Below the pieces are notes generated by a model. It did no database searches, was not told the DNA's origin, and was given only the letters and a program-made list of their open reading frames with translations. Positions 13,093 through 20,581 of a stretch of 64,000 nucleotides of DNA are shown here, piece after piece. The number at the start of each line of letters is the position of its first letter. Position 1 is the first letter of the stretch. The translations under genes were made by a program, and so were the position numbers. This DNA is from Lophium mytilinum (taxonomy: Eukaryota). The stretch is from positions 889,334-953,333 of the forward strand of contig MU004185.1 of NCBI GenBank assembly GCA_010093605.1, written 5' to 3'.

Positions 13093-15248
13093 ATGTCTGA
13101 TGCCTTGGTGCAGCTAGCAGAGAATGTTGTTCTTCTTCAAAGGCTCAATCCGGAGCCAGGAAAAGCTGGTACGAACTCGCCCCCAGATCTGCCGTCTGGT
13201 AGAAGGACGTTGAGTATGAGACATGAGCAAGCTATACTGGAAAGCCTTTCTTTTCTGCTGGCGTCGAGCGATAAACCTGATCGTATCTTAGCTCTCTGCA
13301 TTGAGGAGAAACGCAATCCTCCTGGTATGATCCTGAGCTATGCCGTAAACATCGACGGTCAAGAGGTTCTCCGAGTTGGAATCAACGGAATCACGAAAAT
13401 ATTGGAAGCCGAATCTTATGGTGTGTTTTCTCTGCGGATATGCCAAATGCACCATTGCTTACATATTCTACAATAGAACATGACGAAAGAAACGGTATAG
13501 CACTACGAGACCAGATAGTATCACACAGTCAGTCCCGATTGCTTCGTCGGCTCGACTCAAAACATCAACTAGCTTCACAAAGAAAGTTAACCCCCAAAGT
13601 TTCTGTGGCTATACTTCTTCGCAGAGCTCTTGAAAGCATCATAAGTAGCCACAGAGCCCTGCCTCGCGATCATGAGGCTTTGTGGCCGCTAGCAAGGAGT
13701 CTCGAGAATCACCATCTACGCCTCGAGAAGTTACCCACAAAGAAAGCTCGATCTCAGGAAGGTCTCTCACTGCTGAAGGGCATCTTGGAAACGTCAGCAA
13801 CTATATGCACTTACCACACGCATGGGTTGAAAAGTGTCCTAGATCTCATCCCGTCAAAGGCGCCGTGGGACGCAAGCACAAAAGCGAATTTGACCCGCAA
13901 AATTGAGAAACTAGGTCATTACCATTCTGCAACTGATTACCTTCTCTCAGCTGCTTCTCGATTCTCGATCTTTCACTCTATAGAGGTACAATATGTCCCG
14001 CTTCGACCCGCCGATCTGAGGAATGGAAGCATCAACTCGAACACCCCCGGCCTATTGAGTCGCTATCTACATGGTCAAGCGACTGCAATCGATGACGCTG
14101 CAGTCAAAAGATTACGTCAGCGAAATCTGATCGACCTCACAGCAGTCCGAGACCAGGTTCAAAATCAGGTTCGAAAGACCCAGTTCAGAGTCCACGCAGA
14201 GATGAAGCTTTTGCTGTATTACGAGCGACAACAAAGCAAAGATTGCATCCCTCCACGTGTAATAGTCTCGAGCAAAAGTGCTTGCTTTCTGTGCGATCTG
14301 TACTTCAAACTCCATGGCGGCTTCTATATGCCCAAGACGCATGGGACGCTCTATGAGAAATGGACACTCCCGGATATGGACCAACTAGAATTGCTTCCAC
14401 CACGAAAGAGAGAGAACTTGGACAGTGTTTTGGTAAAGCTGAATACTGATATCGAACGAAGGATTTTTGAGTCTATTGAGGCGGGACCATTGGCCCGGGA
14501 GCACCCTAATGAGAGCATGATTTTTTCATTTCCTTCTTTCACATCACCACCCGTCTCAGCTACATCTACGAACAGACCACAGTCAGAAGCCCCTGATCAA
14601 GAACAGGCTACCGATGATTTTGATCCTCTAGGATCAAGAGTTACGAACCTCCGGACGACTGTCAGCGACCCGGTGGTCTCGAATTCTCTTCTGAGTAGCC
14701 ACAATCAGCCTGGGCTATCGCGTCTGGATGAAGTCAGCAGTCAGGAAGCCAAGGATGCTGTGGCCGTGCCGCTACGAACAGACTCTATGTTCAGCCCGCC
14801 GCCGTTCATTCCCTCACCAACTCTTCGCTCTCAAAATGACCTCAGCGTGGAGCTCATCGCATCCAAAGAGATAATCCACCTAAGTCCAGGTATCATCCAT
14901 CGCCGCATTCTCACAGAAGATTCCCCTCCAATCAGATTCCACAGTCAGCATATACATGTTGAGCTTTCCCGCTCGTGTACCGAGCATCTTCTCTCCCTTG
15001 ACACGGACTCTGAAAGCAGCGGGACAGCCGAGAGGGCTGACCTCTGCGTTGCTGTAGAGCTGTTCACACCGGACCGGGCATCAAGGGCTGTCGATGATCT
15101 TGACCCGTACATCGTGGACATGAGATCAGACTGGAAGAAGTTGAGCGCCCCGAGCGGTGCCATGTACACCCCACACGGGTTGTTGTTACGGAAAAGGGGC
15201 GATGTAGTTGCTCTTAGAGTGGACCTGGATTACAACACCTTGTCATAG
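13093..15248 (+). CDS. OTT_1508-like Zn-dependent nucleic-acid deaminase family protein
   Basis: Exon 1 13093-13420, intron 13421-13476 (GTGTGT...TAG), exon 2 in frame to 15248. Contains VHAEMKLLLYYE (His codon at 14193), PPRVIVSSKSACFLC and THGTLYEKWTLP, the HxE...SKxxCxxC pattern of fungal OTT_1508-type deaminases. Confidence 0.8.
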
Positions 15249-16155: not shown

Positions 16156-16902
16156 TCATTTTAAAGACTCATCATCGTCCACATCAAACGGCTTGAAGGT
16201 CCTCAAAGCCTCAAGTGCCCTTTCTTCCTCATCTTCATCCGCTACTTCTTTGTTTTGAATAATCTTAGTGGTCGCGTTGAGAAACCTTTCGTACTCCTCT
16301 GACTCGACTTCGTCGCCCTCCTCCTCCTTTAAAACATGACCGGAGATGGGATCTGACCATTCCGTCTCACAAGGCGTGGTCTGCGGGTCCGCACTGCCTC
16401 GTCGCTTAGCCAAAATGCCTCCTAATGTGTGCGGCGTAGCAACTTACCGGTAGCTCCATGATTTCACTCCTCTCCTCCCGCCGTGCCCATGCGCCTCGCA
16501 GTTCGTGAGAAGGGTTTTGAGCTCCTTCACACACTCTTCTTTCTTGAGCACGTCTGACGTGCGGTCGACTAAGGAGATCTGGAACCACCACTGCAAACCC
16601 TTATTCTGGTAGTAGACTGGGAGCCACGGCCTATCCTTATCCGGTTTGTGGTCTTTGTCACCCTTCACTCTGATGGTCGGATAGGTGCGACATGCACCTC
16701 GCATCGGACGGGTAGCGTTGAACGTTGCGGAGCCAAGTTGAGTCAACAGATGGTCGCAGACGCTTGGTAGGCTAGCCTTGACTAGCTCCAAGGCGTAAGC
16801 GTACTCGCCGCTGTGGTAACAGTAGGTCCATTCATCAGGAGCTTTAGCAAGCGCAAGGGGCCAGGTGAGAGTGATGAAAGTAAGAATGTTGAAGTTCTTC
16901 AT
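16156..16902 (-). CDS. Small secreted Cys-containing protein (effector-like) with an acidic C-terminal extension
   Basis: ATG at 16902, signal peptide MKNFNILTFITLTWPLALA. Intron 16394-16447 (GTAAGT...GCTAAG...CAG) joins ...NCEAHGHGGRRGVKSWSYR to ADPQTTPC and a D/E-rich tail. Six Cys in the mature domain. Confidence 0.75.
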
Positions 16903-18765
16903 GTTGAAGGGATGATTTTCGCGAACGAAGAATCTGCGATGTCTGGGTTTGATATTGGAGGGCACTGGAACGAGTCGCAAGTGCAGGAGGCGCTGAGGAA
17001 GGGCTGGGGCGACGGGGTTAATAGAGTATCTTATTATAGCTAGAGCCATGGTTTACCTAGTGCCCAGCTGTCATCTAAAGTGTGGCTCATGATAAACGCA
17101 TTATCGTTTCTGGGATGGGCCGTCGAATGTGGAGTGGTTTGAAAAGGAAGAGACTAAGTATAGTCACCAGAAAAGCACTAACCACGGAAGAGACTGTGGG
17201 CTAGACGTACGGAACTGTAAGCTAGACAATGTGTGGGTCAAAGAAAGAGTGTTGTGGTGAGCGTGGAGAAGTGGGCTATTGAGCAGCGCAAAGACAAATT
17301 GAGTTACCACTTATAAAGTTACTAGACAAAGATGGGCTTGATACCGTAGTTGATAAAGTTGAACATTCAGAGTAAAGGTCGTGCAGTCTCCTAATCGACT
17401 TCGTTGACTACTTGTAGATGTGTTCTTCGGGTCAATTGAAACTACATTGAGGCATTTGAGATCTAACGTGCGCAACTAAGAAAACGTCCAGTTCCCGAGC
17501 CTATGCGAATCGCAACGATTGCGGTATCTCATTGCTGGTATGGACTATGCAAACAACTACACGGTCTTTGGGTAGCCATTCATCTATGAAGAGCCTAGAT
17601 ATTGTCGTTCCTAGGGACAAATCTATTCTCCGCTCCGGCTACGTCAGCCTGCCATTCATTCTAGGGCACAACTCTAAAAATCGTGACCTAGATCTCGCAA
17701 CAAAGCATGGATGAGATTATAATATCTAGTGCCACGCTTGAAAGAACGCGTATCTTCAAACATGGTGAAAAGTGCGAAGTACTTTGTGCACAGCAAAGAG
17801 ATTGAACTAGACGGAGCGGATCTAGAGCTGTCCTTAGTCTAGTGCGGTCCATAACAGAACAGTTTCTGGTTAGCGAGAAGCATGTCTTTAAGTGGCTTTA
17901 GGAACCCACTCGGTTAGGCCAAACCTTACCATAGATTGGACACAAAATCAAATGGGGGTAGTTAAGGAGTGAAGCAACTGGAATGGAGTGGTTTCTAACG
18001 TCTCCGTTAAACCCAAACTAGCGCCGATTCGGTTAGTCTGTACCATGAGGAGATATTTTTTCAAACATATTTACATGTTTGTTTATTATTCATCTTGCGA
18101 GCTTCAACAAGCTACTTCCAACTCTACTTCCTAGGCTAATCGCCAAATGACTACCAAATAAATTTACCAATACTTGAACCCCTACATTTCTACCCCGCTA
18201 ATAGTTCGACGATGGAAGGACATGGATGCATGCAATAGTACGGCTCCAGTTGCGAGTATATTTCTTGCGCGGGTTGATTAGCAGTTGTCAGGCGTTGTAG
18301 TACTGGCTGGGGTTGCACTGTCTCTTCACTTTCCTAGCTACCCATTATTAGCACGACTATCCATTGCCCCTTTAGCTCTTCGCCTGCGGAAAAGTAGGTA
18401 TCCTAGCGCATCCTGGCTATAACAGCCGCCAGTATCCCACAGTAAGCCTGACTTTCGCACTAGTCAAAAGGCCGCTTATGCTTAAGACAGGCGTTAAGCT
18501 AGCAGTATCAATGGACTGTGTGATCCCTACATCTTGGTGGCGCTTGAAGGGGTCATTCTGTTAGAATTATATCCTCATGCGATTTGTTGGTGCTAATGCA
18601 CTTGTTTGCTCCTTATGCACTATCCATTTTACCCAACCCGCAAACACACGCGGCATAATATTCCCAGGATTTCTCGCACACAACCAGCATTAACTACACC
18701 TATATCATCACATCAAACCTCGTCATCGTCCAATCAAAACGCGGCTGTAGCTCAGCGGTAGAGCA

Positions 18766-18814
18766 GTGAGTGACTTCTACAAACGTGGAAAACAACAAAC
18801 TAACAGCGCCATAG
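18766..18814 (+). other. 49-nt spliceosomal-type (GT-AG) intron inside the tRNA-Cys gene, between tRNA nt 26 and 27
   Basis: Starts GTGAGT, has branch motif ACTAAC at 18799-18804 and ends CATAG. Its removal leaves exactly one nucleotide (A26) between the D stem and the anticodon stem. Confidence 0.85.
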
Positions 18815-18825
18815 TCTGACTGCAG

Positions 18826-18832
18826 TAGTGCT
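18826..18832 (+). other. 7-nt canonical tRNA intron (TAGTGCT) at position 37/38
   Basis: Begins after G37, one base 3' of the GCA anticodon. Its antepenultimate G can pair with C32 (anticodon-intron pair). Removal restores the 7-nt loop CTGCAGA. Confidence 0.85.
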
Positions 18833-18874
18833 ATCAGAGGGTACTGAGTTCGACTCTCAGCAGCCGCTAGAATC

Positions 18875-18882
18875 TTTTTTTT
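18875..18882 (+). terminator. RNA polymerase III terminator (T8) of the tRNA-Cys gene
   Basis: Run of 8 T starting 7 nt after the discriminator base. Confidence 0.85.
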
Positions 18883-19170
18883 GCTCACTAATTCGCGGTC
18901 TGTGTATACCTCGAGTGATATTGGGAGGGATGAGATAAAGGGAATGTGAAAGAGACATGTGTCTTGTTTTTAGTATGAGAAGGTAGCTTCGACAGGTTTC
19001 AGGAGTTCAAAGGGGAATATTTCGAAGTAGAGATATAGTAGTGATAATGATATGACTTCTATACTCTAGCCAAGGTATTTACTCGCCATGTACCGCCTGC
19101 CAGTGCTCCAAAGCAATCAAACACATACAACCCAGGGGTAAGAGCCGTTTCCGCGACACCGAGCAACCAC

Positions 19171-20581
19171 CTATTTGATCTCGGTCTTGCCCAACATATC
19201 TGCCAGCTCGTCGACCTTCTCGTCCTTCTTCTGAGCCACAGGCTCCTCCTCAGCTTTCTGCGTATCTGCCACCTCCCGAGCAGCCTTCTCCTCGACCTCA
19301 ACGCCCTCTTCTTCCTGATCACTCGCAACACCTTCCTCGTCTCCTTCTTCATCTTCATCTTCGCTGTCGAGCTCATCCAACTCATCAAGACCCCAGTTTT
19401 CGTCATCCTCGTCCTCGACTCCGGCTTTCTCCATCCTCGCACTAAGCACCTCCCTCAGAGCATCAATCGCCTCTTCCTCTTCACTGAACTTGTTCCCATT
19501 CAGTTCCACACGTCTTAGCACGGGCAGCTTCTCGACCGCGCCCGCAATGCCTTTGACACCCTGAGCATTGATATCGTTGTACTGCAACCTCAGCACCTCC
19601 AACTTTTGATTCCCACCCTTCTCCAGTGCCGTCGCCAACATGATACCCCCGCGCCCGCTCAGTAAGCAATCCCCCACTCCCAACTCCACCAGCTCCGGCC
19701 AGCGACCCACCACATCGCTCAATGCCCGCGCACCAAGTGCTGTAAAGGTGTTATCCTGTAGATCAAGCACCCGCAATGCCGTAGTCTGTGACAAGCCCTC
19801 TTTCAGCAGATGCGCGATTCCCTCCTGTCGAATCCCATTCTGCACCATCTTGATCTCCCTGACACCCGCATGTGCCGCATACGCCTTCGCCCAGGCTGCC
19901 ATGCTGCCATTTTCAAGTCTGTTACGGCCGCAAATCACAGTCTCGAGGTCCGGGACCTTCTCGCCGGAAGCGCGAGCCGCGGCTTTCTTTTTCGCGAGAG
20001 CGGTCAGGGCGTCGGCGATCAGCACGCCGGCGGCGGGGCCAAGCCCGTTGTTGTTGAGGATGAGGTGGCGCAGGGGCACATGGGAGGCGAGGAAGGCGAC
20101 AAGGGGTGCTTGGGTGTTGAGACCGAAGGCGTTGTCAGAGAGATTAATGGTGTGGAGGTCGGGCAGCGCGAGGAGGGCAGTTAGGAGGGACGATAGGGCG
20201 GGGGGGATCTCGGAGAGGAGGCGGGAGGTGAAGATGTCGGCGAAGTTGACGATCTAGGAAAGGGAGCAAGCTGTCAGCACCTGCTTTGGAGATACTGAAG
20301 AACAAGATAGGGGCTTGTTTCTTAGGGGTAGAGGTAGAGGTAGAGGTATGGGAAGTGTCAAAAATATAGAGCTAGGGCGGTAAACAAACCTGTAACTTCT
20401 TCTTCGTCTCCAGCACCTTCGCCAGTGCCTCTGAGGCGCCTATGCCAAGGGTATTTCCTAGGAATTTGATCTCTTCCACATCATCGTTCTCCCGCAGCGC
20501 TTTGATATGTGGCTCGATGTCCTCAGCGGTATCGAGCTTGAGGCCCTTGCCTTCGAGGGAAAAAATCTTGGTTGAAGCCAT
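19171..20581 (-). CDS. RNA1: Ran GTPase-activating protein 1 (LRR)
   Basis: ATG at 20581 (MASTKIFSLEGKGLKLDT). Intron 20254-20389. Motifs FADIFTSRLLSEIPP, LSDNAFG, LNNNGLGPAAG, ICGRNRLENGS, MVQNGIRQEG and LDLQDNTFT, followed by an acidic tail. Confidence 0.95.

Follow-up and report, generated by a model that had tools for sequence, protein, structure and literature searches.

Can one nuclear transfer RNA (tRNA) carry introns for both of the splicing systems of the eukaryotic nucleus, and by what route would such an RNA be made? The question is raised by a locus in a stretch of 64,000 nucleotides (nt) from Lophium mytilinum (GenBank assembly GCA_010093605.1, contig MU004185.1, positions 889,334 to 953,333 of the forward strand), hereafter the window, in which positions are counted from the first base. 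According to the available parts of a 2023 review of tRNA (PMC10275265) and of a 2025 paper (PMC12530127), the two classes of intron are kept separate, and tRNA introns leave only by the endonuclease-ligase route while spliceosomal introns sit in transcripts of RNA polymerase II (Pol II). Here we show that positions 18741-18868 of the plus strand hold, in three pieces, a tRNA-Cys(GCA) gene of the nuclear genome of an ascomycete, its coding sequence broken twice by introns of two unrelated classes, and that the first of these introns, 49 nt long and with GT-AG borders, is precisely cut out of a long transcript that is non-coding and Pol II-like. The coordinates of the locus and its surroundings are collected in Table 1. 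An earlier note on this DNA, made from the letters alone, had placed the anticodon on a micro-exon between the two intron classes and had proposed that two machines remove them in a fixed order.

The identification of the gene rests on its sequence with and without the two inserts. A local scan with the Rfam tRNA family (RF00005) gave 18741-18868 a score of 39.2 bits (E 4.5e-07), where the gathering score is 29; 69 nt occupy the space of the 17-position anticodon arm. As it stands in the genome the gene escapes routine annotation: ARAGORN made no tRNA call on the raw window, and an Rfam gathering scan with default filters missed it. When the spliced forms were made in a script by coordinates and then given to ARAGORN, the form from which the 49 nt had been deleted was called as tRNA-Cys(gca) with a 7-nt intron, i(38,7), and the form lacking both inserts as a 72-nt tRNA-Cys(gca). 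This 72-nt form has Watson-Crick pairs at 21 of its 21 stem positions, has its anticodon at 18822-18824, and possesses U8, A14, G18, G19, A21, U33, G53, U54, U55, C56, A58, C61 and U73, the last being the discriminator base that serves as a Cys identity element. Deleting only the 7 nt led ARAGORN to propose a tRNA-Pyl (cta) with a 26-nt intron, a spurious call that ignores the Cys anticodon arm, and two further Rfam matches near the gene, 5_ureB_sRNA (13.1 bits) and sR18 (11 bits), fall far under their gathering scores and were taken as chance. Across the whole window, which has a GC content of 52.6%, a permissive Rfam scan returned the tRNA-Cys gene as the sole match with an E-value up to 1 (E 9.6e-05 for 64 kb) and a custom scan for a T arm with a matching acceptor stem returned one candidate, the same gene, neither scan finding another tRNA gene in the window.

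The 49-nt intron has signals typical of a short spliceosomal intron. It opens with the 5' site GTGAGT (18766-18771) and closes with TAG (18812-18814), and between them lies the branch site CTAAC (18800-18804), whose branch A at 18803 is 11 nt before the 3' end. Of 200,000 random 49-mers drawn at the base composition of the window, one combined GTRAGT with a CTRAY 5-25 nt from the end and a final AG, and the analytic chance of those signals at fixed borders is 2.1e-6. This stringent pattern has 11 matches on the two strands of the window, the 49-nt intron among them; the other ten, which are pattern matches rather than verified introns, are 50-86 nt long with 9-17 nt between branch and 3' site. 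In length and branch distance the insert is thus similar to short fungal introns of the neighbourhood. Searched within the 64 kb for copies of itself, the intron gave as its best non-self match a perfect stretch of 10 nt, or one of 13 nt if a single mismatch is allowed, and no second copy of the leader or tRNA region was found in the window beyond matches of at most 13 nt, except for an 18-nt match of the leader (89% identity). This within-window search would neither back nor exclude a repeated mobile intron.

Evidence that the intron leaves an RNA comes from public sequencing data. Four runs (X1-X4), none of them recorded as RNA, cover the region, and all were compared with the window over 17500-20500. 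X1 and X2 are DNA-like, covering the whole region with no joints, and the window may itself derive from them; X4 (organism C) covers only 19135 onward, which is outside the tRNA region. In X3 (organism B), a contig of 1368 nt (record 7), with a mean word depth of 1152 and zero differences from the window, is composed of the pieces 18108-18393, 18464-18765 and 18815-19594. Its joint from 18765 to 18815 skips exactly 49 nt with GT..AG ends and without positional ambiguity, and its joint from 18393 to 18464 skips 70 nt, again with GT..AG ends. The depth is 0 in the bin 18005-18105 and 3.6 farther upstream, compared with 1152 in the adjacent region. Over both introns the bin depths equal those expected from record 7 alone (for example 616 in 18712-18812, which is 1152 x 54/101), and therefore no X3 contig contains the 70-nt or the 49-nt intron. 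The run also skips the intron at 20254-20389 of the neighbouring gene for a Ran GTPase-activating protein (RanGAP), which lies in the opposite orientation (CT..AC). X3 was judged to be RNA-like because that intron is skipped, because the depth drops to 0 upstream, and because no contig holds either intron of the tRNA transcript. We are highly confident that the 49 nt are a true spliceosomal intron of the U2-type GT-AG class that is taken out of RNA; the machine that removes it would, by its signals, be the spliceosome.

The joint also settles several details of the gene. Since it has no ambiguity, a junction shifted by -1, which would give G26, is excluded, and position 26 is A, resolving a one-base uncertainty that the tRNA fold had left. 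The CAG at 18804-18806, directly after the branch site, which the earlier note had described as a competitor that must be skipped and whose use would leave 8 extra nt (18807-18814), is present and is indeed passed over in favour of the border at 18814/18815. The anticodon-bearing 11-nt exon between two intron classes, with a spliceosomal-type AG on its 5' side (the TAG at 18812-18814) and a canonical 7-nt intron on its 3' side, is borne out by the coordinates as read and as reproduced by script, by ARAGORN and Rfam, and by the X3 joint. The term micro-exon needs to be narrowed: the 11-nt exon is real as a piece of the tRNA, but as seen by the spliceosome in the long transcript it is merely the start of a long last exon.

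The second intron is of the ordinary tRNA kind. ARAGORN, given the form without the 49 nt, places it at position 37/38, one nucleotide 3' of the anticodon. In canonical introns an anticodon-intron pair joins position 32 to the third-last intron base, and here G 18830, the third-last base, can pair with C32 at 18820, just as the earlier note had read it. Eukaryotic canonical tRNA introns range from 6 to 133 nt in the portions available of a 2014 review (PMC4090602), so that 7 nt lies close to the lower limit; the same note had put it at the short extreme. In record 7 of X3 this intron is still present, with no gaps and no differences, which counts neither for nor against its removal at a later step. 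Its position and the C32-G pair point to removal by the tRNA endonuclease.

Does the 49-nt intron have to leave first, as had been proposed? The intermediate that such an order predicts, with the 49 nt gone and the 7 nt kept, is the form found in X3. The converse form, lacking the 7 nt and retaining the 49 nt, is absent from the X3 contigs, which drop rare forms and come from a library in which small RNAs would be missing. The eukaryotic endonuclease is thought to measure from the hinge of the tRNA, which is where the 49-nt insert sits. However, this order is not forced by secondary structure, because all four arms of the tRNA still form in the fold of the unspliced 128-nt RNA, where the insert makes a hairpin of its own (minimum free energy -42.6 kcal/mol, z -1.55). 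Removal of the 49-nt intron first is plausible and fits the data, but need not be obligatory. It should also be noted that the pre-tRNA seen in X3 is a long transcript with a further GT..AG intron, not a short precursor that RNA polymerase III (Pol III) makes. As to splicing by two machines, what is observed in RNA is the removal of the 49 nt at spliceosomal signals, whereas the identity of each machine is one that we infer.

The transcript in which the tRNA is found begins at or before 18108, which is 633 nt upstream of the tRNA. A coding leader was ruled out, the longest open frame of the spliced leader being only 70 codons from stop to stop. A long leader that starts just past a TATA-like block, a second intron and the lack of a long frame are together characteristic of a non-coding transcript of Pol II that has a tRNA in its 3' part.

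We propose the following pathway. A long transcript would be made, from which the spliceosome would take out both GT-AG introns, the one of 70 nt in the leader and the one of 49 nt, and the loss of the latter would join the D arm to the anticodon stem again. The tRNA would then be released from the transcript by RNase P and RNase Z, the tRNA endonuclease would cut at 18825/18826 and 18832/18833 with the aid of the C32-G pair, tRNA ligase would join the halves, and CCA would be added. Pol III may transcribe the gene too, in which case the short RNA would be spliced in the manner of the Pol III-made U6 RNA of fission yeast. On balance we expect that the pathway as a whole yields a working tRNA-Cys. 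The more demanding statement, that this is a decoding nuclear tRNA which needs both the spliceosome and the tRNA endonuclease to mature and which Pol II makes, at least partly, at the end of a non-coding RNA that is spliced, we advance tentatively, as a proposition on which our judgement falls a little short of evenly balanced.

Several considerations weigh against the proposed pathway. The RNA support consists of one contig from one run of one study, the label 'RNA?' carried by X3 is a guess of the tool that assigned it, and contigs reveal neither the ends nor the strand nor the abundance of an RNA. Record 7 runs into the convergent RanGAP gene, so that its depth averages the two genes, and in it leader, tRNA and 7-nt intron are still one uncut piece. 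Within the tRNA, the tertiary pair 15:48 (18755, 18843) is G:A, which is unusual compared with pairs of the G:C or A:U type and could be either a trait of the lineage or a mark of constraint that has relaxed. The interrupted copy may be dispensable if the genome has further tRNA-Cys genes that are uninterrupted. No relatives were found in metagenome, prokaryote or viral contigs, hence there is no support from conservation. Finally, the run of eight T residues (T8) downstream of the gene suggests Pol III, whose short transcript is no established substrate of the spliceosome outside U6.

One alternative is that the tRNA comes from a short transcript of Pol III, made from the internal promoter boxes, ended at the T8 run and spliced by the spliceosome, with the long RNA an incidental read-through. 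The T8 run is the sole run of at least eight T on either strand of the window, and the chance of such a run in a given 20-nt span is about 0.0002. Matched against the A-box and B-box consensus sequences, an A-box-like motif (TAGCTCAGCGG, 18748-18758) in exon 1 and a B-box-like motif (AGTTCGACTCT, 18847-18857) in exon 3 are both intact. No run of four or more T interrupts the gene, and from 18108 to 18868 a single one occurs (TTTT, 18627-18630). From the T8 run together with the intact boxes it follows that Pol III transcription of the tRNA-Cys gene may persist or be recent. A Pol III transcript would be about 150 nt long and would itself require spliceosomal splicing, for which there is a precedent in the Pol III-transcribed U6 (PMC5855946). 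On the other hand, no short transcript was seen, though one would probably escape a library of this type; the spliced form in X3, the sole one observed, continues from a leader that measures at least 633 nt and has an intron of its own; and the two inserts stretch the distance between the starts of the A and B boxes to 99 nt. We regard this alternative as unlikely.

A second alternative concedes that the splicing is real and holds that it is unproductive, the locus being a dispensable or dying tRNA-Cys copy that gained a spliceosomal intron inside a long non-coding RNA (lncRNA) of Pol II, a young pseudogene or no more than an lncRNA exon, while other tRNA-Cys genes supply the cell. The uncut state of the X3 contig and the unusual G15:A48 pair are what such a copy might show, as is the failure of the pattern searches to turn up relatives that would demonstrate conservation. 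In metagenome contigs a 24-nt pattern of the T arm and acceptor stem found at least 11 loci, and ARAGORN called 11 of 11 as tRNA-His(gtg) with introns of 118-147 nt, an unrelated gene that was set aside. When exon 1 and exon 2 with a gap of 30-60 nt between them served as the pattern, two loci turned up in prokaryote genome contigs, both ordinary bacterial tRNAs with a chance match downstream, and none in viral contigs. A decaying copy is harder to reconcile with the state of the gene: all 21 stem pairs and the invariant nucleotides that were checked are intact, the intron borders restore the cloverleaf exactly, and the only T run of its length in 64 kb sits 7 nt past the gene. An intact cloverleaf, a terminator and exact borders together imply either purifying selection or a very recent insertion, and we consider an unproductive copy improbable.

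The 11 tRNA-His loci listed lie on metagenome contigs of sediment type and share 24 identical nt of T arm and acceptor strand with the tRNA-Cys gene (match at about 401-424); 10 of the 11 are near-identical to one another, and their intron is unusually long.

It is very improbable that both inserts are cut by the tRNA endonuclease, the 49-nt one by way of a bulge-helix-bulge motif. Some eukaryotes do have non-canonical or multiple tRNA introns, among them a nucleomorph whose tRNA-Cys(GCA) has several, as described in the accessible part of the 2014 review (PMC4090602). At the 49-nt insert, however, the central helix of such a motif would have 2, 2 and 1 of its 4 pairs at junction offsets of -1, 0 and +1, the flanking helices are poor, and neither the minimum free energy fold nor the centroid fold of the unspliced 128-nt RNA contains the motif. 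The insert has GT..AG borders and a CTAAC branch site instead, and a second GT..AG intron lies in non-tRNA sequence of the same contig. Weakest of all is an origin in accident or artefact, whether chance intron-like signals in a tRNA-like sequence or a misassembled RNA contig, which would suit a junction backed by one contig of one run and which is barely credible given intron signals with a chance of about 2e-6, a tRNA score above the Rfam gathering score, and a 1368-nt contig at that depth, free of differences, with two other clean joints of GT..AG type nearby.

The surroundings of the locus add some context. The RanGAP gene is of the ascomycete type, from which the organism is taken to be an ascomycete. 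It is convergent to the tRNA transcript, and its 136-nt intron, which starts with GTTTGT and not GTRAGT, is spliced in both X3 and X4. The X3 contig is unbroken from the tRNA into this gene, and the two transcripts probably overlap tail to tail. The yeast counterpart RNA1 first became known through a mutant that accumulates unspliced pre-tRNA; its adjacency to a tRNA here is probably a coincidence. Within the part of the gene that encodes the acidic tail of the protein, a 36-nt segment (19333-19368) also matches, with 4 differences, a second contig of that genome (X1 record 2, X2 record 4), and all four runs have loose ends there; the segment probably codes for acidic repeats of low complexity. 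Upstream of the host transcript lie open frames at 16444-17052 on the minus strand (202 codons) and 13305-15248 on the plus strand (647 codons), both from stop to stop, and the hydrophobic start that follows an internal Met in the 202-codon frame suggests a small secreted protein.

Table 1. Features of the tRNA-Cys(GCA) locus and its surroundings, in order along the window.
Feature	Positions	Strand	Length	Content and basis
A/T-rich TATA-like block	18050-18091	+		Upstream of the contig's first base by 17-58 nt; putative Pol II promoter of the host transcript
Host transcript, first exon (non-coding leader)	18108-18393	+		X3 record 7
Leader intron, GTAGGT...CTGAC...TAG	18394-18463	+	70 nt	GT..AG joint in X3
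Leader up to the tRNA 5' end	18464-18740	+		X3 record 7, piece 18464-18765
tRNA-Cys exon 1	18741-18765	+	25 nt	tRNA positions 1-26: acceptor 5' strand, D arm, A26; Rfam, ARAGORN, pairing table
Intron at tRNA position 26/27	18766-18814	+	49 nt	Spliceosomal-type
tRNA-Cys exon 2, TCTGACTGCAG	18815-18825	+	11 nt	tRNA positions 27-37: anticodon-stem 5' strand, C32, U33, GCA, G37
Canonical tRNA intron TAGTGCT at 37/38	18826-18832	+	7 nt	
tRNA-Cys exon 3	18833-18868	+	36 nt	tRNA positions 38-73: anticodon-stem 3' strand, variable loop, T arm, acceptor 3' strand, discriminator U73; Rfam, ARAGORN, pairing table, motifs
T8 run, Pol III terminator-like	18875-18882	+		7 nt past the discriminator
Ran GTPase-activating protein (RNA1-type)	19171-20253, plus upstream exon beyond the 20254-20389 intron	-		Ascomycete clusters at 0.97

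If our reading is correct, the tRNA-Cys of this locus would be the first tRNA with a spliceosomal intron. A literature search, with most subscription journals outside its scope, found no published report of one, and no word beginning with 'spliceosom' occurs in the available text of the 2014 review of tRNA introns (PMC4090602). Two unrelated nuclear splicing systems would act in series on one 72-nt RNA, and the supply of tRNA-Cys would be tied to Pol II transcription and mRNA-type splicing. The gene would offer a natural substrate on which to study the order of the two machineries and the effect of an insert at the hinge on the measuring by the endonuclease, and it would raise the matter of a Pol II as opposed to a Pol III origin for a fungal tRNA. 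As both ARAGORN and default Rfam miss a gene of this kind, more of them may hide in fungal genomes, where they could explain isoacceptors that appear to be missing.

The set of genes outside messenger RNA that carry spliceosomal introns, namely those for the U6, U1, U2 and U5 small nuclear RNAs (snRNAs) and for ribosomal RNA (rRNA), would be extended to tRNA. Introns of snRNA genes were reportedly described by Tani and Ohshima in 1989 and 1991 and by Takahashi and colleagues in 1993 and 1996. The tRNA-Cys gene resembles these in having an ordinary GT-AG intron in the gene of a small, highly structured non-coding RNA. It differs from them in that snRNAs are parts of the spliceosome, the usual rationale being a gain of the intron by reverse splicing, whereas a tRNA is not; in that an endonuclease-type intron lies 11 nt away; and in that its spliced form is found within a long Pol II-like transcript. 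As far as the available parts of the source extend, spliceosomal introns occur in the U6 genes of fungi, fission yeast among them, as well as in the U1, U2 and U5 genes of Rhodotorula, and U6 is a Pol III-transcribed RNA from which the spliceosome must remove the intron if the RNA is to work (PMC5855946).

Two further groups of introns invite comparison. The rRNA genes of ascomycetes carry spliceosomal introns as well (PMC5855946, in the parts available), and these too belong to a gene of the translation apparatus that is not normally transcribed by Pol II, in the same fungal phylum; unlike the tRNA-Cys intron, they sit in rRNA made by RNA polymerase I and have no co-resident intron of another class. 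The tRNA genes of archaea, Cyanidioschyzon merolae and nucleomorphs possess non-canonical and multiple introns, which resemble the present case in using sites besides 37/38, sometimes two or three per tRNA and including tRNA-Cys(GCA), and which, in what is available of the 2014 review, are removed by means of a bulge-helix-bulge and the tRNA endonuclease or, for the nucleomorph mini-introns, by unknown means (PMC4090602). The insert of our tRNA-Cys differs in having no bulge-helix-bulge on testing and in having spliceosomal borders and a spliceosomal branch site. As for the rRNA introns, their description is said to go back to Bhattacharya and colleagues in 2000.

With respect to the transcript, the closest parallels are RNAs that have come under Pol II. 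The tRNA-Sec of Trypanosoma brucei is made by Pol II, and like the tRNA-Cys it is a tRNA within, and released from, a Pol II transcription unit; there, as the source describes it in its accessible part, the unit is polycistronic, the tRNA is intronless and Pol III signals are lacking (PMC2943599). The lncRNA MALAT1 has a tRNA-like 3' element that is cut by RNase P (PMC4824109), and the RNase P RNA of insects has moved into a Pol II intron (PMC6797745). In the available parts of these two papers the MALAT1 element is not a decoding tRNA and neither RNA has an internal spliceosomal intron. Both share with the tRNA-Cys locus the arrangement that our model proposes for it, in which a tRNA-shaped or classic Pol III RNA is borne on a Pol II transcript and freed from it by processing.

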